From Candidatus Altimarinota bacterium (GTDB taxonomy: Bacteria; Patescibacteriota; Gracilibacteria; JBDHUY01), in the NCBI GenBank assembly GCA_039809385.1, contig JBDHUY010000013.1:1-63010 (forward strand): 63,010 nucleotides of DNA, written 5' to 3'. The notes under the pieces are model-generated. The model was not told the origin of the DNA and did not search any database. It saw only the letters and a program-made list of their open reading frames with translations. Below are positions 1 through 54,169 of the stretch, piece by piece; the first letter of the stretch is position 1, and each line of letters opens with the position of its first letter. The translations under genes were made by a program, and so were the position numbers.

Positions 1-1441
1 TAGGAAATGTCTTTGTTGGCTCGCCCTCTGCGAGGGCTCGCCAGCCGATTTTAAGCGCAAATTGGAATTTTTTATCTTTCAAAATGAAGTTCGAGCCGAT
101 ATTTTTTAGGAATGCTCGGATTTCTTGATTGTCGCTTCGCGACAAAAGAATTTTGGCTTGGCTACTGGCTAAAATCATTTCTTTCATCGGTTCGAGCCAA
201 TTATTTCCTTTTTGTTCAAAATCTTTTATTTTCTGTTGAATATCCAGCTTCTCGTTGAGAAGTTTTTGTTTTTTCTGCTGATATTCCTCTGGCTCAATGC
301 CTTTTCCGCCAATAAACAGATCAAGTAAATTCTCGGTTTTGGCTTCGATTTCTGTTTTCTTGGTTTGGAGATTTTGAACAAAAACTTTCGTTTCTTCTTT
401 TGCCTGTTCCCGTTCTTTGTCTATCTCGGCAAGCATATTTTTTGCCCAGTCGTCAGGCAAAGAAACTTTTTGAATAATCGCTTTCATCTGTTCAACGAGA
501 TTTTCTTCCCGCAAATATTTTTCATTACAAGGTTGCTTTTTCTTGGTGCAACGATAATAGTGATGTCCTTTTTGCTTTTCGGCAGTTATGAGGCAGTCGC
601 AATTTCCGCATTTCATCAAACCAGAAAAAGCAAATTCGTGCCTTCGCTTGCGTTTCTTTTTTCCTCGATTGCTCATTACTTGTTGAACAGAATCAAAAAG
701 TTTCTTGGAAATAATTGGCTCGTGCGTTCCATCATAGATTTCACCGTTGAAAGAAAATACACCGTAGTAAATCGGATTTTGCAAAAGTCGCTGGACACAG
801 GAAACCGAAAGAACATTGCCTTTGTAGCTTCTTAGCCCCGCTTGATCCAAAATTTTAGCAAGGGCTTTTAGGGTATATTCGCCAGTTGCGTAAAGTTCAA
901 ATGCTTTTTTGATAAATGGTGCTTTTTCACTATCAATATCAATCGCCCTTGTTTTTGGATTATTGGAATATCCAAGCGGGGCAAAATTTGGCCAAATTCC
1001 TTTTCGCAGTTTTGCTCTATGCCCTCGTTTAATATTCTCACTTAAATTGTCGATATAATATTTACTTTGGCCAAAGGCAATGTTCATCATGAATTTCCCT
1101 TGTGGTGTGCTATCAAACCAGAATGTTGGAAACTTCAAATCTAAAATCTTTCCTGTGTCCAGCAGATAAATGATTTTGCCTCCGTCTATTGAATTTCTAG
1201 CCAGTCGATCCGGATGCCAAGCCAAAATTCCTTGGGCTTCACCCCTTTCAATCCGAGCAAGCATTTCGCCGAACACAGTTCGGCCAGGTTCTTTGGCAGT
1301 TTTTGCCTCGCAAAGCGAGGCGACGATTTCAAGTTTTTCTTTGGCGGCAAATTCTTTTAGCTCAGCAAGCTGAGCTTCAATACTTAAAACTTGTCTTTCT
1401 TCGCTGTCTGTTGATTTTCGAGTGTAGATAAAATATTTCAT
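1..1441 (-). CDS. Large serine recombinase (resolvase + recombinase + Zn-ribbon + coiled coil), 3' end beyond window
   Basis: Manual translation from ATG at 1441: MKYFIYTRKSTDSEERQVLSIEAQ (catalytic YxRxS), WHPDRLARN, SENIKRG, PLGY, GTHEPIIS, FSGLMKCGNC...YYRC...C. Frame stays open to base 1 (...WRALAEGEPTKTFP). Missing from the ORF track because no stop lies in the window. Confidence 0.95.
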   Translation of the reverse strand, partial: MKYFIYTRKSTDSEERQVLSIEAQLAELKEFAAKEKLEIVASLCEAKTAKEPGRTVFGEMLARIERGEAQGILAWHPDRLARNSIDGGKIIYLLDTGKILDLKFPTFWFDSTPQGKFMMNIAFGQSKYYIDNLSENIKRGHRAKLRKGIWPNFAPLGYSNNPKTRAIDIDSEKAPFIKKAFELYATGEYTLKALAKILDQAGLRSYKGNVLSVSCVQRLLQNPIYYGVFSFNGEIYDGTHEPIISKKLFDSVQQVMSNRGKKKRKRRHEFAFSGLMKCGNCDCLITAEKQKGHHYYRCTKKKQPCNEKYLREENLVEQMKAIIQKVSLPDDWAKNMLAEIDKEREQAKEETKVFVQNLQTKKTEIEAKTENLLDLFIGGKGIEPEEYQQKKQKLLNEKLDIQQKIKDFEQKGNNWLEPMKEMILASSQAKILLSRSDNQEIRAFLKNIGSNFILKDKKFQFALKIGWRALAEGEPTKTFP

Positions 1442-1506
1442 AGTTATCCCTTAAAAATTAAAAATGAAAATTCGGGAAGCCCGCTTTTGGCCAGCCCCTT
1501 CGGGGC

Positions 1507-1702
1507 AAAGATAAAAAATTCCAATTTGCGCTTAAAATCGGCTGGCGAGCCCTCGCAGAGGGCGAGCCAACAAAGACATTTCCTAACTGGCGGTGTGCGT
1601 TCGAAAAAATTCGAACTGATTTCGCCCAAAATTTGTAGGGCGGGCGGAATTCCCCCCAGCCCCCCCCTTCCGCCCGCCCGCAGAAGCGACCCTTTCGAAT
1701 TG
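1507..1702. repeat. Internal inverted copy of the joined element ends (putative attP copy)
   Basis: 1507-1585 is the exact reverse complement of 1-79. 1587-1702 is the reverse complement of 5309-5423 with about 2 mismatches and 1 indel. Confidence 0.95.
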
Positions 1703-1863
1703 AAAAACTGCCAAAGAACCTGAAAAAATATCGGCTCGAACTTCATTTTGGGCCAAAAGCGGGCTTCCCTCATTTTTAATTTGATTGATTTCATAAAATT
1801 TGTTAGTATATTTATGAAGGGTTAAATAAGCACCCATACTAATACTATCATACTTAGGAAACT

Positions 1864-2079
1864 ATGAAAAGTCAAAACGATAACGAAACAATTGGGGATA
1901 AGATAAAACAGCTTAGAAACAAGCAGGGATTAACGCAGGACGAATTAGCGAGAAAATCCGACCTTCCCTATACAACACTGACCAAGATTGAAACAAATGT
2001 TATTACTAAGCCGACCATTCAAACTGTAGTAAAAATAGCCAAAGGACTTGGCGTAAGTCTTGATGATTTAATGAAATAA
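1864..2079 (+). CDS. XRE-family HTH regulator (C/controller-like protein)
   Basis: IGDKIKQLRNKQGLTQDELARKSDLPYTTLTKIE...PTIQTVVKIAKGLGVSLDDL; directly upstream of the RM gene. Confidence 0.92.
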   Translation: MKSQNDNETIGDKIKQLRNKQGLTQDELARKSDLPYTTLTKIETNVITKPTIQTVVKIAKGLGVSLDDLMK

Positions 2080-2083
2080 AAAT

Positions 2084-5000
2084 ATGTCTAATATTGATAT
2101 ATTAATCAATAAAATAAATGGGAAGTATTTTAAATACTATATCTCTAAGCGAGATACTATTTCGAGTGAAGAAGATTTAAGAGTCGCATTTTCATCACTA
2201 ATTGACATAATCTCAAAAGAAAATAACGTAGCTATTCTCGAAGAACACCACGAGTATAGCGTGTTAAAAGGACGCATTGACTCACTTTATGGCGAAGTGA
2301 TAGTTGAATATAAAGAACCCCATTATCTAGATAGCTCTAATAGTTCTTCCAAAAATATGAAAGCTATTGAGCAAGTACAACGTCATATTGTCGGAATAGA
2401 GAAAAGACAGAAAATTAATATTAATAGATATTTAGGTGTAATTTTTGATGGATACAAGATAGTTTTTGTTAGAAGAAGAAATAATTTATGGGATGTAGAA
2501 AGCCCAGTGGATGTCAGTGAGAAATCATTTAAATTGCTTCTGCAAAGACTTTTTTCTATTGGCATACAGGGCAAGGCCTTAATTATCGACAATTTAATTA
2601 AAGATTTTAGTATCGTCTCAGATGATACTATCGATGATGTAAAGACATTGTTGGTCAATTTTGTAAAAAATGATAAGGGTAAGATCAATTTATTATTTGA
2701 ACAATGGAAGATTCTTTTCAGGGAAGTTTGCGGATATGATTTTGATACAAAAAAAATTGAAATTAAGGAACTCGCTAAAACTTTTCGAATAGAAAGTGAG
2801 GTTGATGACTTACCACGAATAATATTTGCTATCCAGACATATTATGCGCTCTTTATAAAATTACTTGGGGCTGAAACACTAACTTATTTCCGCCATAGGG
2901 ACAGGAGCTTCATCTCATCTTTAAATAAAGATAATCTTGAGCATAGAATAACATCTTTAGAAAGTGGAGAAATTTTTAGGCTGGAAGGTGTAAACAACTT
3001 CAACGAAGGAGACTTCTTTAGCTGGTATTTATTGTGTTGGAATAGTGAAATAAAAAACACAGTTCAAAAAATATCTACCAAACTTAAAGAATATGATTTT
3101 AGTTCACTAAATTTGGAACCTAAGGAGGCCAAAGACCTTATCAAGAATATTTATCATTACCTTTTGCCACAAAAACTAAGACACTCATTAGGAGAGTACT
3201 ATACTCCAGATTGGTTAGCAGAATTTTTAGTAAAAAAACTTGATATCGATTTTTCTAAAAAAATTAGAGTATTAGACCCCACCTGTGGTTCAGGCACCTT
3301 CTTATCAATCCTTATAGAAAAGATAAAAGAAAATAACGATATTTTAGAAAAAAACAAGTTAATTACCTGTTTAAACAGTATAGTTGGTATAGACTTGAAT
3401 CCCTTAGCAGTAATTTCTGCAAAAACAAATTATTTAATAGCCTTGTCTGAATACTTGAATGACATCGAGGAAGGCGGAATTGATATTCCCATTTATTTAA
3501 GCGATTCCTTATTAGCGCCACTTGAATTTAAAACAAAACATAAAACATACTACGCTTTACCAACTAAAGTTGGCATATTTAAAATCCCAGTTTCTTTAAT
3601 TCAAAATAAACAATTAGATATATTTTTAAATCTTGTAATCGCCTGTATTGATGTTGAGCTAAGTGTTGAGAAATTTAAGATTAAATATACTAGCCTTGAA
3701 TTGAATCTTTCTAATGCTGATAATGATTTGGTTTATGAGTTTTACAATACACTTTTAGAATTACAGAAAAAAGGACTTAACGGTATCTGGGGTAAAATCA
3801 TTAAGAATATATTTGCACCCGCTTTCTTTGATAATTTTGATTATATTATTGGTAATCCGCCTTGGATTAATTGGCAAAATCTACCAGAAGATTATAGAGA
3901 TTCTATAAAAAAATATTGGGAAGATTATAAAGTATTTTTGCATAAAGGATTAAAAGCAAGATTAGGTTCATCTCACGATGATATTAGCGTACTTTTAACA
4001 TACGTTGTAATGGATAAGTATCTAAAAAAAGATGGGCTTCTTGGTTTTGTACTTCCTCAGAATTTATTACAATCGTCGGGGGGTGGCGATGGATTTCGTA
4101 GGTTTCAAATTAAAGACGAAATACAAGTTAAGGCAGTTGTCGTAGATGATTTCGTTGCGGTGCAACCATTTGCAGACATTGGTGCTTCAAATAAGCCAGC
4201 GACTATAATTTTACAAAGAAATAATGTAACTACATATCCAGTCCCTTATCGTAGGTGGTACAAAAAAAGCAAAGGTACAATACCTTCTGATCAGCCATTA
4301 AGTGCTGTTCTTCCTTTATTACAGAATGAGGAACTTGTAGCAGAGCCAATAAAAAACAAGACCCCAGGCTCCTCTTGGCTTATAGCGGACAATAAAAAGA
4401 TAAAAGTATTAAAAGCCTTAGTTGGTCATTCAGATTATCGTGCTAGAAAAGGCGTAGATTTTAGTCTTAATGGCTTGTATTGGGGAAAAATTTCTAGGTC
4501 AAAGATTAAAGGGAATATAGTATTTGAAAATGCATCAGATATCGGAAGAAAAAAACTAAAGCCCTATCAAATACCTCTTGAAAAGGATGTTATTTTTCCA
4601 ATACTTCGCGGGAAAGATATAGAGAGGTGGTTAGCTGAGCCCAGCTATATGGCAGTGATTCCTTATGATAATAGTGGTAAATGCATCCGGACAGAAGATT
4701 TAAAAAATGAATATCCAAATACTTACAAATTTTTTTACAAAACTGACGAGGAAATTACGCGATGGCTAGATACAAGAGGAATTTATCAAAAACACCTTAA
4801 ATTAGCCAATATACCACTACATGGTTTATATGATATTGGAGAATATACCTTTAGCAAATACAAGGTTGTTTGGAAAGCATTAGCTAGTGGAATGATAGCA
4901 AGTGTTATAAACTCTATCGATTATGGTTTATTGGGTAATAAGTTGGTTATTCCTGATCATAATGTCTTAATGGTTCCTTTAGATACGGCAGAAGAAGCCC

Positions 5001-5239
5001 ATTATTTGTGCGGCATATTGAATAGTGAAATTGTCAATGAATTTGTCATTGCTTATATTTCTTGGTTTTATTCAAGCCATATTTTAGAACATATTAATAT
5101 TCCGAGTTTTAATGTAAATAATCGAAATCATCGAAGAATCAGCGAGCTATCACAAAAAGCACATTTGCATAAAAAATTAACAGAGTTTGAGCAAGAAGAA
5201 CTTAATAATATAACACTGGCAATTTTAGAAAAAGATTAA
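2084..5239 (+). CDS. Type IIG/IIC fused restriction endonuclease-N6-adenine methyltransferase
   Basis: N-terminal RIDSLYGEVIVEYK (PD-(D/E)xK-like), GEYYTPDWLA, motif I VLDPTCGSGTFL, motif IV IIGNPPW, C-terminal TRD-like region (YKVVWK...YLCGILNS). AT-rich. Confidence 0.9.
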   Translation: MSNIDILINKINGKYFKYYISKRDTISSEEDLRVAFSSLIDIISKENNVAILEEHHEYSVLKGRIDSLYGEVIVEYKEPHYLDSSNSSSKNMKAIEQVQRHIVGIEKRQKININRYLGVIFDGYKIVFVRRRNNLWDVESPVDVSEKSFKLLLQRLFSIGIQGKALIIDNLIKDFSIVSDDTIDDVKTLLVNFVKNDKGKINLLFEQWKILFREVCGYDFDTKKIEIKELAKTFRIESEVDDLPRIIFAIQTYYALFIKLLGAETLTYFRHRDRSFISSLNKDNLEHRITSLESGEIFRLEGVNNFNEGDFFSWYLLCWNSEIKNTVQKISTKLKEYDFSSLNLEPKEAKDLIKNIYHYLLPQKLRHSLGEYYTPDWLAEFLVKKLDIDFSKKIRVLDPTCGSGTFLSILIEKIKENNDILEKNKLITCLNSIVGIDLNPLAVISAKTNYLIALSEYLNDIEEGGIDIPIYLSDSLLAPLEFKTKHKTYYALPTKVGIFKIPVSLIQNKQLDIFLNLVIACIDVELSVEKFKIKYTSLELNLSNADNDLVYEFYNTLLELQKKGLNGIWGKIIKNIFAPAFFDNFDYIIGNPPWINWQNLPEDYRDSIKKYWEDYKVFLHKGLKARLGSSHDDISVLLTYVVMDKYLKKDGLLGFVLPQNLLQSSGGGDGFRRFQIKDEIQVKAVVVDDFVAVQPFADIGASNKPATIILQRNNVTTYPVPYRRWYKKSKGTIPSDQPLSAVLPLLQNEELVAEPIKNKTPGSSWLIADNKKIKVLKALVGHSDYRARKGVDFSLNGLYWGKISRSKIKGNIVFENASDIGRKKLKPYQIPLEKDVIFPILRGKDIERWLAEPSYMAVIPYDNSGKCIRTEDLKNEYPNTYKFFYKTDEEITRWLDTRGIYQKHLKLANIPLHGLYDIGEYTFSKYKVVWKALASGMIASVINSIDYGLLGNKLVIPDHNVLMVPLDTAEEAHYLCGILNSEIVNEFVIAYISWFYSSHILEHINIPSFNVNNRNHRRISELSQKAHLHKKLTEFEQEELNNITLAILEKD

Positions 5240-5308
5240 GAATTTGCCAGCCAAACTGGGTGAAGCCCAGAGTTCCGCTTTTAGCGGAACGAAAAACTTG
5301 AAATCGTC

Positions 5309-5423
5309 CAATCCGAAAGGGTCGCTTCTGCGGGCGGGCGGAAGGGGGGTCTGGGGGGAATTCCGCCCGCCCTACAAATTTTGGGCGAAATCAGTTCGAA
5401 TTTTTTCGAACGCACACCGCCAG
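5309..5423. repeat. Right-end repeat of the element (inverted relative to 1587-1702)
   Basis: About 115-nt GC-rich reverse-complement match, with internal hairpins GGGCGG...CCGCCC and GTTCGAA-TTTT-TTCGAAC. Confidence 0.95.
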
Positions 5424-5518
5424 AATCCAATCGAGTTATTTGAGCTATACAAACTTCAACAGGCATAGGAGCTGTACTTTTTATCCATATATTCAAAATT
5501 ACGTTCATAAAGATTATC

Positions 5519-5956
5519 ATGAAAATCTATATTACCGCCCCTTTTCAAGGAAACAAAAATCGAGACCAGATCGAAAATATGTGTGCAATCGTCAACAAAT
5601 CCGGTTTTGAAGATTTTTGTTTTGTACGCGATGTCGAAAATTACCAGAAGGTCTTTCATAATGCTCATGAACTAATGCAACGAGCCAAAGAAGAGATCGA
5701 AAAATGTGACGCATTGCTAATCGACTATGACGGTCCGGCCAGCGGTCGTATGATAGAACTTGGCATCGCGTATGCCTTGCAGAAAAAAATCATGTTGATA
5801 ACCCACAAAGGAACTACTGTAAAAGAAACCGTAACTGGAGTTACGAATGCAATCATTGAATACGAAACTCTCGAAGATATTGTTGAACCGATGACAAAAA
5901 TTCTGTCAGATTGGACAAGAAATGAGAATATTGCTCAAGACCTTAGCAGAACTTAG
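5519..5956 (+). CDS. Nucleoside 2-deoxyribosyltransferase-family protein
   Basis: MKIYITAPF...IEKCDALLI...SGRMIELGIAYA family motifs. Confidence 0.8.
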   Translation: MKIYITAPFQGNKNRDQIENMCAIVNKSGFEDFCFVRDVENYQKVFHNAHELMQRAKEEIEKCDALLIDYDGPASGRMIELGIAYALQKKIMLITHKGTTVKETVTGVTNAIIEYETLEDIVEPMTKILSDWTRNENIAQDLSRT

Positions 5957-6044
5957 TCATAGAGATTCTTCATAATGAGTTTGCTTTAACAACAAGCGAG
6001 TATTTTTCTGTCTTACCACTTTCACGCTAAAAAATAGATAATAT

Positions 6045-51753: not shown

Positions 51754-51836
51754 CTACGGGATTCTTTGTTCTCGCTAACGCGGGACTCAGAATGACCAGT
51801 ACCGGTCATTCTGAGAGAGCGCGAAGAATCCCGTAG
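51754..51836. repeat. REP-like palindrome (GATTCTT..CTCAGAATGAC / GTCATTCTGAG..GAAGAATC)
   Basis: Near-identical copy at 54093-54169; half copies at 41772-41797, 59771-59796 and 60342-60365. Confidence 0.8.
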
Positions 51837-53933: not shown

Positions 53934-54092
53934 GTATATTTGTTATAGAATTGTGAGTGAGGAAAGCAACCATAAATACGTTCCTCACTCACAACCCTAT
54001 TTCCTCATGATCACAGAAACAGCGTGGTCTTTTTTGGCGTGAGAAGCCTGAACTAGAGAGTGTTCCCTGGGAGGGAGTGGTAGACTGGGAGT

Positions 54093-54169
54093 ACGGGATT
54101 CTTCGCTCCCGCTAACGCGGGGCTCAGAATGACAGTCCCTGGTCATTCTGAGCGTAGCGAAGAATCCCG
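54093..54169. repeat. REP-like palindrome, copy of 51754-51836
   Basis: GGGATTCTTCGCTCCCGCTAACGCGGGGCTCAGAATGAC...GTCATTCTGAGCGTAGCGAAGAATCCC. Confidence 0.8.

Follow-up and report, generated by a model that had tools for sequence, protein, structure and literature searches.

Among the described systems closest to the locus reported here are integrative elements and prophages with a large serine recombinase, such as those of SPbeta SprA and the A118/LI integrase, which, like the present element, combine a three-domain protein, a specific chromosomal site and a short shared core. Serine recombinases act on duplex DNA, and we know of no serine-integrase element that contains an intact inverted copy of its attP, perfect gene-closing repeats of 80-160 nt, or nested covarying stems in the integrase open reading frame (ORF). 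The attP of the CTX phage is a folded single-stranded recombination site. Integron attC hairpins are folded single-stranded sites as well (PMC6393395, PMC2727003). The likeness of both to our element would be that the site is duplex only when one strand folds on itself and that a gene cassette adjoins the folded site. However, attC and CTX attP are local, imperfect hairpins of ~60-140 nt used by tyrosine recombinases that exchange one strand, whereas here perfect arms lie 1.4 to 3.7 kb apart, whole genes are enclosed, and the element's only recombinase is of the serine type and not, as at those sites, a tyrosine recombinase.

Other known systems share single traits with this locus. In IS10 and IS50, fold-back pairing blocks translation of read-through transcripts; there a terminal sequence pairs with the transposase leader, much as is predicted here for the recombinase leader, and unwanted transcripts of those elements stay untranslated. 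That is one short local RNA pairing, whereas in our element about 14 stems, none of them tolerant of G:U, involve the coding region as well as the far element end. Hin and Gin segments and intragenic invertons likewise have repeats that flank or lie in a gene, and the recombinase considered here sits, like hin, inside a repeat-bounded segment; yet at our locus the pairs are nested and all differ in sequence, one orientation strongly prevails (57:1), and the serine recombinase is large, not small. The yeast 2-micron plasmid and plastid genomes are circles split by two inverted repeats, a form that our element would take if excised, with the recombinase in one region; in contrast to them, the element is seen integrated, and no replication gene was found in its minimal members. 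The coding sequences of RNA viruses, viroids and obelisks also double as extensively paired structure, but these are RNA replicons with G:U pairs and imperfect helices, whereas our element is chromosomal DNA, and its stems are exclusively exact Watson-Crick ones. A search of the openly accessible literature turned up general papers on integrases and ICEs and no description of this architecture, and the more distant homologues that we examined have no internal inverted attP copy, no gene-closing long repeats and no nested stems.

The gene in question lies at the start of the window, the term used here for the whole stretch of DNA analysed (63,010 nucleotides of a Candidatus Altimarinota contig).

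2..1441, minus strand: large serine recombinase gene, recognised by its ORF and Pfam domains; 480 aa are encoded in the window.

By its domains the predicted product is a large serine recombinase, and its gene is the constant core of a small integrative element. Three Pfam domains score above their curated cut-offs (PF00239 Resolvase, 69.9 bits; PF07508 Recombinase, 62.9; PF13408 Zn_ribbon_recom, 33.4). When continued by computation onto contig C8, the frame passes through the flanking repeat into the antisense tRNA and then comprises 494 aa. Its nearest solved relatives are two serine integrases, those of SPbeta and A118, with the Y-x-R-x-S motif aligned: YTRKS corresponds to YLRRS of SPbeta integrase chain 9dxh_A, R8, K9 and S10 are invariant in a three-protein alignment, and SprA is matched by phmmer at E = 9.3e-08. 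Among the matches listed, annotated phage integrases are ~24-29% identical to the recombinase (annotated phages at most 28.8%, plasmids at most 32.4%), and all matching records fall in the under-60% band.

An earlier note on this DNA, made from the letters alone, had proposed that the gene codes at once for protein and for an extensively self-complementary structure. All eight pairings that it listed are exact reverse complements (8/8 checked), its long-range stems among them. The stems inside the gene, none of which has a strand assigned, are as follows; member counts refer to pairing of the matching columns in the family alignment described below.

148-162/1216-1230: stem of 15 bp (18 bp at 94%), paired in 19/79 members.
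164-171/1198-1205 and 171-180/1168-1177: inward continuation of the preceding stem, exact.
193-208/707-722: stem of 16 bp, paired in 36/79 members, with 19 distinct arm sequences.
209-224/369-384: stem of 16 bp, paired in 49/79 members, with 37 distinct arm sequences.
460-473/693-706: stem of 14 bp, paired in 61/79 members, with 26 distinct arm sequences.
790-804/1149-1163: stem of 15 bp, paired in 15/79 members.
811-824/1072-1085: stem of 14 bp within the preceding one, paired in 15/79 members.
835-844/973-982: stem of 10 bp, also within 790-804/1149-1163, exact.
129-145: local hairpin inside the gene, with a 7-bp stem and a 3-nt loop.

Two of these, 209-224/369-384 (16 nt) and 460-473/693-706 (14 nt), were absent from the earlier list. 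The former directly abuts 193-208/707-722, a stem in which HEPIIS codons pair with GNNWLEP codons, and the 3' arm of the latter abuts 707-722, so that a multi-helix junction would form. Altogether the recombinase loop nests about ten exact stems of 10-16 bp. The smaller structures proposed earlier fared unevenly. The triloop hairpin at 129-145 is present as described, whereas its supposed counterpart at 1234-1244 has a stem of 3-4 bp only. Complementarity between the start-codon regions of the recombinase gene and of an XRE gene (1436-1445/1860-1869) is exact, but 10-mers of this kind also arise in shuffled sequence (1.5-1.9 per 1.44 kb); this pairing was left out of the feature because the neighbouring gene is not XRE-like in 11 minimal members inspected by eye, which carry other genes at that place.

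Chance origin of the stems is excluded. Six exact inverted repeats of at least 14 nt occur in the recombinase coding sequence, against a mean of 0.07 (maximum 1) in 500 synonymous-codon shuffles and of 0.026 in 500 dinucleotide shuffles, and none was found in the 14 other open frames of at least 1200 nt in the window; the earlier observation is thereby confirmed, and the effect is larger than it had stated. Over the whole 63-kb window, 10 of the 19 exact inverted repeats of at least 13 nt with arms no more than 1.5 kb apart lie within the first 1.8 kb. Folded as RNA, the coding sequence reaches -416.4 kcal/mol, whereas 12 codon shuffles gave -334.1 +/- 9.4 (z = -8.7).

The same architecture recurs in a family of loci, of which 80 were used for comparison of element and flanks, 79 in a codon alignment and 82 for tRNA context. 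The 80 homologous loci, mostly labelled as Patescibacteria metagenome-assembled genomes (MAGs), contain 572 inverted repeats of at least 13 nt in 169.6 kb of element sequence and 52 in 205.5 kb of flanks, whereas 17 more distant homologues have 0-3 repeats of at least 12 nt each. The predicted stems thus characterise a single clade of recombinase genes, whose members come mostly from MAGs with a Patescibacteria label. They are nested, with 185 of 2213 stem pairs crossing (8.4%, against 22.7% under random placement). They also stand at fixed alignment positions, where 68.2% of cells are paired as compared with 38-45% when partners are slid, and the pairing is bimodal, each stem of a given member being either (near-)perfect or at random level. 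Stem positions and the layout of the four stems S1-S4 introduced below are kept down to ~55% protein identity. At least 592 family matches were found among species-representative genomes, spanning many candidate-phyla lineages, with protein identity of up to 97% between MAGs that carry different lineage labels; in IMG/VR five relatives were found, three of which are clade members, all three cut by contig ends.

Judged by this alignment, purifying selection preserves the stems, and they covary among family members. Third-codon changes in arms as against non-arms numbered 0/79 versus 66/401, 1/79 versus 78/398 and 4/79 versus 117/401, so that synonymous change is ~10-fold rarer in arms than in the rest of the gene, a slowdown of which ascertainment bias (the stems were chosen as intact in the window) accounts for no more than ~2-fold. 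Changes on both sides of a stem were counted 508 times against 279 +/- 18 in shuffles, a value reached in 0 of 500 shuffles; in 209-224/369-384 both sides had changed in 16 of 17 pairs, and the three commonest stems occur with 26, 37 and 19 arm sequences. Suppression of synonymous substitution at paired positions and covariation among orthologues, which the earlier note had named as signs to look for, are therefore both present, and its proposal of dual coding is supported: neither shuffles nor ordinary genes give such counts, and orthologues keep the pairing.

That reading nevertheless needs widening, for the predicted structure spans the whole mobile element, beyond the ORF. Two long inverted repeats, again without assigned strand, form its frame.

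1..79: R, the arm of the first long perfect inverted repeat that lies on the tRNA side; its full length is 87 nt, 8 of them on contig C8.
1507..1593: R', inverted copy of R, 100% complementary to 1-79 and C8:97122-97208.
1587..1702: U, proximal arm of the second long inverted repeat, a 97% match to the opposite strand of 5309-5423.
5309..5423: U', distal arm of the second long repeat and far boundary of the element.

By these boundaries the element is integrative and adjoins a tRNA gene at its 3' end; it measures ~5.4 kb here, from the tRNA-Ser gene on C8 to position 5423. R doubles as coding sequence for the conserved C-terminus of the recombinase, and at its outer tip it includes the final 6 nt of tRNA-Ser(GGA). 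The last 7 nt of U', CCGCCAG (5417-5423), directly repeat the tRNA 3' end, and seven further loci likewise have direct repeats, of 3-7 nt, at the element boundaries. R' lies 65 nt upstream of the recombinase ATG and contains the inverted core ACTGGCGG at 1586-1593, where its tip is abutted and overlapped by U. As read from these matches, R', the core and U are an intact inverted copy of the joined element ends, resembling an attP. Because this copy lies upstream of the recombinase, the two long repeats would close a recombinase loop and a cargo loop. Within each member the long repeats are 100% identical, and they differ between members. Apart from the direct core the element ends are not alike, each long repeat pairing one end with an internal site; a transposon or insertion sequence with terminal inverted repeats was rejected on this ground.

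The elements target at least 22 different tRNA genes, at their conserved ends. A convergent tRNA is present in 57 of 82 loci, none was called in 10 loci with at least 80 nt of room, and the others are cut by contig ends; gene orientation relative to the tRNA is the same in 57 loci and reversed in one, L060, where the tRNA lies on the 5' side of the recombinase gene. Around the core, quasi-palindromic ATTTCC...GGAAAT motifs were seen by eye in several members. An idea based on motif spacing was dropped: in the window GTTCGAAT stands 10 nt from the core on the tRNA arm and 15 nt on the U arm, which we take to resemble the attB/attP offset of serine integrases, and this offset is not repeated in other members.

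The cargo loop and its ties to the recombinase gene comprise the following features (S1-S4 without assigned strand).

1703..1722: S3, 20 nt directly inside U, pairing with 1285-1304 in the recombinase gene (+137 from the ATG).
1723..1750: S2, 28 nt, pairing with 80-107, the 3' end of the gene next to R.
1751..1782: S1, pairing with leader positions 1455-1492, 14-51 nt upstream of the ATG, in the exact blocks 1751-1769/1474-1492 and 1770-1782/1455-1467.
1864..2079, plus strand: XRE-type helix-turn-helix gene (Pfam HTH_3).
2084..5239, plus strand: cargo gene for a 1051-aa Eco57I-like N6 DNA methylase, identified by Pfam.
5291..5308: S4, 18 nt directly inside U', past the methylase gene, pairing with 1322-1339.

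Through these four predicted stems the cargo loop is evidently linked, at each of its ends, to constant positions in the recombinase gene and leader. S4, the U:U' helix and S3 would meet in a three-way junction with a 17-nt linker (1305-1321). The S2 28-mer (27 nt in one case) is 100% identical in L029, L030, L031, L032, L036, L037 and L045, with protein identity down to 65%; the S3 layout is repeated in 13 of 18 members, and S4-equivalent arms, 17 in all, occur in 16 of the 18. At the 18 loci that have both long repeats, stem density is 0.52/kb in cargo loops versus 3.19/kb in recombinase loops, and the cargo arm lies at one of the two cargo-loop ends in 57 of 61 cargo-to-recombinase pairs. 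The genes enclosed vary. The XRE gene is present in the window and in close relatives, homology with L032 extending through it, and is not universal in the family; the methylase gene has no inverted repeats of at least 14 nt and no excess of repeats, and in its place a related element has 2337 other letters. Inspection by eye of the ORFs listed for the 11 minimal members revealed no second recombinase-like frame.

We tentatively propose that the stems serve to fold a single-stranded copy of the whole element, DNA being a more likely substrate than RNA. Such a strand could come from competence uptake, from type IV transfer or from exposure at a replication fork. Within it the two inverted copies of the joined ends, which could pair in one strand, would anneal into one duplex recombination site. 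Compaction of the 1.4-kb recombinase loop would fall to the nested stems, which would also keep the 5' portion of this loop at the junction. The single mismatches found in intact stems divide into 25 of G:U type in the sense strand, 25 of G:U type in the antisense strand and 5 others, and into 12:10:2 in nine counted consensus helices of the ten defined; with 55 and 24 events, this census excludes a strong G:U preference and is compatible with a weak one. The mismatch statistics hence show no preferred strand and do not identify the folded molecule as mRNA. The genome encodes RNase III, ComEC and DprA, the last two of which give weak support to this proposal because they are widespread genes. 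Natural competence has been reported for Saccharibacteria (PMC10187176), and a conjugation-like type IV system in Patescibacteria (PMC12102498). For a folded single strand we derived no workable integration route by a serine recombinase; plain serine-recombinase exchange on the folded molecule would leave hairpin-capped chromosome ends. Against single-stranded DNA also stands the concentration of stems in the recombinase transcription unit and their absence from cargo gene bodies, which fit control of expression as well. A stronger form of the proposal, which we regard as rather doubtful, is that this is the first self-folding single-stranded DNA mobile element built around a serine recombinase, in which a strand of the element would form two stem-loops, a duplex attachment site would be rebuilt in their stems from two inverted copies, and the gene would have been recoded, one codon after another, for about ten helices and cargo-loop struts; such a natural 'DNA origami' would let a minimal element, with one recombinase gene and one cargo gene, spread among ultra-small bacteria dependent on DNA uptake.

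The main alternative, somewhat less likely in our estimate, is an RNA structure that controls the recombinase: base pairs between the leader, the coding region and the 3' end would restrain translation or set off processing, and may signal whether the element is integrated or excised. Candidate molecules are a recombinase mRNA with a long leader, a transcript of the excised circle, in which S4-U'-core-R would be contiguous with the 3' end of the gene, and plus-strand read-through from the tRNA promoter. The bias of the stems toward the recombinase gene and its upstream region supports this explanation, and the nearly fixed orientation of the gene relative to the tRNA could reflect a transcriptional constraint. 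It also accords with RNA folding far more stable than that of codon shuffles (z = -8.7, -14.2 and -11.8) and with the best promoter-like match (10/12, minus strand, 1875-1847), which would place S1-S3, U and the R copy in the leader and let most pairs, except S4 and U', form in one mRNA; the scan for promoters and terminators as a whole was not above shuffles (5 vs 4.1 expected; 5 vs 2.8), so that such matches are leads only. Related elements occur in contigs of two metatranscriptome libraries, a presence that is no proof of transcription. However, G:U is not in excess over A.C mismatches on either strand (25:25; 12:10), unlike in selected RNA helices; S4 and U' lie past the cargo gene and thus outside the recombinase mRNA when the element is integrated; perfect duplexes of 80-200 bp are substrates for the RNase III that the genome encodes; and a terminator-like plus-strand hairpin at 246-264 could stop read-through from the tRNA. 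Rfam 15 gave no family match for window positions 1-6000, with two sub-threshold chance snoRNA matches (E up to 1). We favour the folding of single-stranded DNA over that of RNA.

Another explanation is inversion in duplex DNA, with the repeats as substrates for gene scrambling or phase variation of the intragenic-inverton or Hin type. Recombination that depends on identity would likewise need exact matches and lack a strand bias; the long repeats flank the recombinase, so the protein stays intact in either orientation, and L060 has the opposite tRNA arrangement. It is nonetheless improbable. Of the 58 oriented loci 57 show one orientation (contigs of four sequencing runs end at the long repeats and cannot resolve isomers), the short pairs all differ in sequence, which precludes recognition of every one of them by the same site-specific enzyme, and a length of 13-16 bp is small for homologous recombination. 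Moreover, nesting is far above chance, the arms abut helix ends with 0-nt gaps in a junction geometry that recombination does not need, and the reading frame would be lost on inversion at any of the internal pairs. The stems might instead be a neutral by-product devoid of function, left by a mutational process such as template switching or gene conversion between arms, which the long repeat on the flank would promote; the bimodal pairing of members agrees with this, and long repeats that are identical within but different between members suggest copy correction. Yet conversion couples arms without slowing their change, while third-position change is ~10-fold lower in arms, and stem positions and the S1-S4 layout are conserved to ~55% protein identity. 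This model, which we consider highly improbable, was rejected on the third-position slowdown. An artefact of assembly or amplification might be suspected from the start of the window at a contig end, which many family members share; contigs end at these loci because of the long inverted repeats. The reading frame is intact, and the protein that it encodes is conserved over every arm. This architecture is shared by 82 loci, with contig names that point to different assemblers and projects, and an independent run yielded contigs with the same sequence (5 of 6 at least 99% alike). These observations led us to reject an artefact, the probability of which appears negligible.

At this locus selection for exact long-range base pairs can be measured in a gene that codes for a protein of a DNA element, a clear natural example of a nucleic-acid fold that shapes amino-acid sequence and synonymous sites alike. 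Should single-stranded DNA be the molecule that folds, folded-strand recombination would extend beyond tyrosine recombinases; if it is RNA, the recombinase mRNA would be an unusually elaborate one that senses the state of its own element. For annotation, the long repeats explain the assembly breaks at these loci. As tiny elements, consisting of a recombinase and one variable cargo gene and found at many tRNA ends, they are attractive natural integration tools for host organisms that have only recently become genetically tractable. Since the family is large, occurs in many lineages and reaches up to 97% identity across lineage labels, it probably plays an important part in carrying genes between members of a group in which gene transfer is little understood.

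The window is the opening 63 kb of contig C13 in the source genome (1.87 Mb, 26 contigs). It carries a large serine recombinase gene whose product exceeds the cut-off for the Pfam domains Resolvase, Recombinase and Zn_ribbon_recom. Among solved proteins, this one is closest to the serine integrases of SPbeta and A118, with which its catalytic Y-x-R-x-S motif aligns. Each of the pairings that the earlier note had listed was verified as an exact reverse complement, and two exact stems had been overlooked:

1441 to 2, minus strand: large serine recombinase gene, 480-codon frame
209-224/369-384: further exact stem inside the recombinase gene
460-473/693-706: further exact stem inside the recombinase gene

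The coding sequence contains six exact inverted repeats of at least 14 nt. Its synonymous-codon shuffles (500) average 0.07, never exceeding 1, its dinucleotide shuffles (500) average 0.026, and none of the 14 other window frames of at least 1.2 kb has one; the suspected excess over shuffled controls and over other genes of the window therefore holds. Inverted-repeat lengths in the gene are bimodal, with a background at 9-11 nt, none at 12-13 nt and a second group at 14-16 nt. The stems form a nested set, several of whose arms adjoin with no gap. The whole window has 19 exact inverted repeats of at least 13 nt with arms at most 1.5 kb apart, and its first 1.8 kb accounts for ten of them. As RNA, the coding sequence has a folding energy of -416.4 kcal/mol (z = -8.7), while 12 codon shuffles give -334.1 +/- 9.4. 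Distant from this region, an exact 20-nt inverted repeat (59774-59793/60343-60362, arms 550 nt apart) is the sole other of such length in the window. Three short-range hairpins of 13-14 nt lie at 51754-51836, 53951-53994 and 54094-54169; two of them share the word CGGGATTCTT and may belong to a small dispersed repeat family.

A comparison with 60 relatives of the source genome revealed these features in the two closest homologues as well, which come from other genera and have 55% and 49% protein identity: the gene is flanked by a perfect repeat of 133 or 150 nt, contains many exact stems of 12-17 nt, and folds with z = -14.2 (L010) and -11.8 (L011) against codon shuffles. The 17 remoter homologues (at most 38% identity) have 0-3 inverted repeats of at least 12 nt per ~4 kb. 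Scanning a single genome for each prokaryote species returned at least 592 relatives, the best 80 of which we took as family loci. Most of these 80 are metagenome-assembled genomes labelled Patescibacteria (candidate phyla radiation) from many lineages, the rest having another or no lineage label, and protein identity reaches 97% between assemblies with different lineage labels. Exact inverted repeats of at least 13 nt number 572 in 169.6 kb of element versus 52 in 205.5 kb of the loci's own flanks. When L010 and L011 are included, exact lengths of 13, 14, 15 and 16 nt occur in 131, 103, 88 and 90 cases and 17 nt falls to 27, and 185 of 2213 stem pairs cross (8.4%), versus 22.7% with the same spans randomly placed. 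Judged by contig names, the loci stem from many projects and assemblers, and five of six contigs of an independent run matching the window sequence are at least 99% alike. The stems are a trait of the family, neither an oddity nor an artefact. The same genome has a second large serine recombinase gene (G000:C3:177228-178664), 37% identical to that of the window. Recombinase homologues in seven same-class relatives (G020, G022, G029, G034, G042, G046 and G053) contain 6-22 in-frame TGA codons each, so TGA is probably a sense codon in those lineages; it is not read as sense in the source genome.

A codon alignment built from 79 full-length members shows stems recurring at identical columns in 61 (26 distinct arm sequences), 49 (37 distinct) and 36 members (19 distinct). 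For each stem, a given member pairs either perfectly or nearly so, or at the random level. The arms vary among members by matched double changes, as in CAATTATT, CAATGATT, CAGCGATT and CGATCATC, each with a complementary partner arm. Covariation was counted in an independent nucleotide alignment of 71 members over 131 consensus pairs in nine helices. Paired cells amount to 68.2%, versus 38-45% with partners slid by 1-3 columns, a percentage favoured by the derivation of the consensus structure from the same sequences; the slid and shuffled controls address covariation. Both sides changed in 508 cells, versus 279 +/- 18 when shuffled (0 of 500 shuffles reach 508) and 285-332 when slid, and in one helix this was true of 16 of 17 pairs. 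Thus both the conservation of stem positions and the covariation among orthologues proposed at the outset are borne out, as is the suppression of synonymous change: in five close relatives, third codon positions changed at 0/79 in arms vs 66/401 in the rest of the gene, 2/79 vs 57/365, 1/79 vs 71/373, 1/79 vs 78/398 and 4/79 vs 117/401, or about ten-fold more rarely in arms, a contrast to which the choice of stems intact in the window contributes at most about two-fold. Compensatory doubles appear at larger distance (seven in L037). Neutral copy-correction would link the two arms without making them change more slowly, and the arms are therefore under purifying selection. One 28-mer, present as two inverted copies at 80-107 (minus strand, encoding KNIGSNFIL there) and 1723-1750, is 100% identical (over 27 nt in one case) in seven relatives, whose protein identity goes as low as 65%, with surrounding DNA at 69-94%; since this conservation exceeds the needs of pairing alone, the 28-mer may also be a protein-binding site.

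The gene lies within a larger unit delimited by two long inverted repeats:

1-79 (87 nt including bases of contig C8) and 1507-1593, inverted: R/R', perfect complement, closing the recombinase loop
1587-1702 (directly adjoining R') and 5309-5423, inverted: U/U', 97%, closing the cargo loop

The end of contig C8 shares 121 identical nt with window 1-121 and carries a tRNA-Ser(GGA). The R repeat extends 6 nt into the tRNA 3' end, and the recombinase frame continues across the repeat into the antisense of the tRNA. The exact 121-base overlap suggests an assembly-graph branch there, which could reflect a population variant beside the repeat. The distal copy U' terminates in CCGCCAG, a direct repeat of the tRNA end (the core), followed by unrelated sequence; repeat layout and core together delimit an integrated element of about 5.4 kb, with the tRNA at one boundary and 5423 at the other. 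Besides the recombinase gene it holds one of XRE type and one for an Eco57I-like methylase of 1051 aa. Read from the sequence, R'-core-U upstream of the recombinase is an intact inverted copy of the would-be joined ends U'-core-R. In a relative at 87% identity, homology continues through the XRE gene to window 2097, and in a contig from a metatranscriptome library of the public run X15 (window 2086-5250) the XRE end is joined to the distal repeat with 2337 other letters replacing the methylase gene; cargo is thus swapped among elements that are otherwise alike. The U arm contains a G+C-rich 12-bp hairpin (GGGCGGGCGGAA ... TTCCGCCCGCCC) at 1640-1680 (inverted copy ~5330-5370) in A+T-rich surroundings.

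This design is general. A flanking repeat of at least 25 nt occurs in 66 of 82 loci (nine of the 16 without it end at a contig end) and a convergent tRNA in 57; the 47 loci with both comprise 22 tRNA types, and in 30 of them repeat and tRNA overlap by exactly 6 nt. ARAGORN found no tRNA in 10 loci with a flanking repeat and at least 80 nt beyond (e.g. L068, L070, L085, L087 and L104); the repeat tips of at least two (L068, L085) look like tRNA ends, and tRNAs may have been missed or targets may differ. The recombinase gene has an almost invariant orientation with respect to the tRNA, L060 being the sole exception among 58 oriented loci: there (L060:1870-2116) a tRNA-Asn is attached to the repeat at the 5' side of the gene, co-directionally, and the contig stops before the gene's 3' end. 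The L060 arrangement may have arisen by flipping of the recombinase loop or by a rearrangement via the internal site. A second long perfect repeat (52-156 nt) is present in 21 of 43 loci with sufficient upstream sequence, and the 18 that passed a strict adjacency rule form our whole-element set. Base-by-base inspection of seven loci showed the core in direct orientation at each element end and inverted at the internal junction. The second loop of 11 minimal members measures 760-1172 nt and carries a single gene, very varied in kind, on the same strand as the tRNA. A quasi-palindromic ATTTCC ... core ... GGAAAT, 4-8 nt either side of the core, was seen by eye at the internal junctions of L052, L066, L069 and L099 and at window 1576-1610, and these motifs are likely recombinase half-sites.

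In the 18 two-repeat loci, stem density is 0.52/kb in cargo loops (11 in 21.1 kb) and 3.19/kb in recombinase loops (82 in 25.7 kb). Loop-to-loop pairs number 61, and in 57 the cargo arm lies at either end of the cargo loop. A segment lying 0-59 nt inward of the distal repeat has its partner in the recombinase gene at +83 to +106 (17 arms, 16 loci). Of three successive segments at the proximal repeat, the one immediately inward of it pairs at +137 to +144 (13 loci), the second at +1330 to +1346, next to the flanking repeat (15 loci), and the third with the leader at -24 to -53 (14 loci). The window pairs are:

5291-5308/1322-1339: S4
1703-1722/1285-1304: S3
1723-1750/80-107: S2
1751-1782/1455-1492: S1

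By strand polarity, the U:U' helix, S3 and S4 would meet in a proper three-way junction whose linker is 17 nt long. S4 and U' are located on the far side of the cargo gene, so that forming every pair requires one strand across the whole element.

Which molecule folds can be judged in part from the non-Watson-Crick positions in otherwise intact stems, nearly all of them single transitions. A helix selected in one RNA strand is expected to tolerate G:U far more than A.C, a preference seen on neither strand: all stems in the 82 loci give 25 G:U in the sense, 25 in the antisense and 5 other mismatches, and nine of the ten defined consensus helices, those giving counts, 12, 10 and 2. This even split speaks against a regulatory RNA fold, as does the RNase III encoded in the genome, an enzyme that would cleave RNA duplexes perfect over 80-200 bp. 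Such a fold would nevertheless suit the clustering of stems in the recombinase transcription unit, the near-fixed gene orientation, and the top promoter-like match on the recombinase strand (1875-1847, a consensus match only), which would place S1-S3, U and a copy of R in a ~400-nt leader; we consider it rather unlikely.

Our tentative preference, held at somewhat below even chances, is for single-stranded DNA. Competence and type IV transfer both deliver DNA in this form, and the genome encodes ComEC and DprA. Serine recombinases exchange both strands of duplex sites, and for integration of a folded strand we derived no route that avoids hairpin-capped chromosome ends. Accounts of related bacteria report natural competence in Saccharibacteria (PMC10187176) and a conjugation-like type IV system in the phylum Patescibacteria (PMC12102498). 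That the inverted repeats are instead substrates for inversion in duplex DNA seems improbable. With arms so slow to change, stems as a neutral by-product are more improbable still, and an artefact, given the diversity of projects and the independent run, is barely conceivable. The remaining probability goes to an explanation beyond those considered.

The element belongs among serine-recombinase integrative elements. Its architecture is without description in the literature searched (titles and abstract openings), in Rfam and among annotated phages or plasmids, and to our knowledge the folded architecture is without counterpart. The dual coding claimed from the window alone is upheld, in that the recombinase gene also serves as one part of an exact base-pairing architecture that is conserved and selected. 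This architecture extends over a small integrative element that targets tRNA genes and holds an inverted internal copy of its own attachment site, and a single-stranded form of the whole element would be folded by it.
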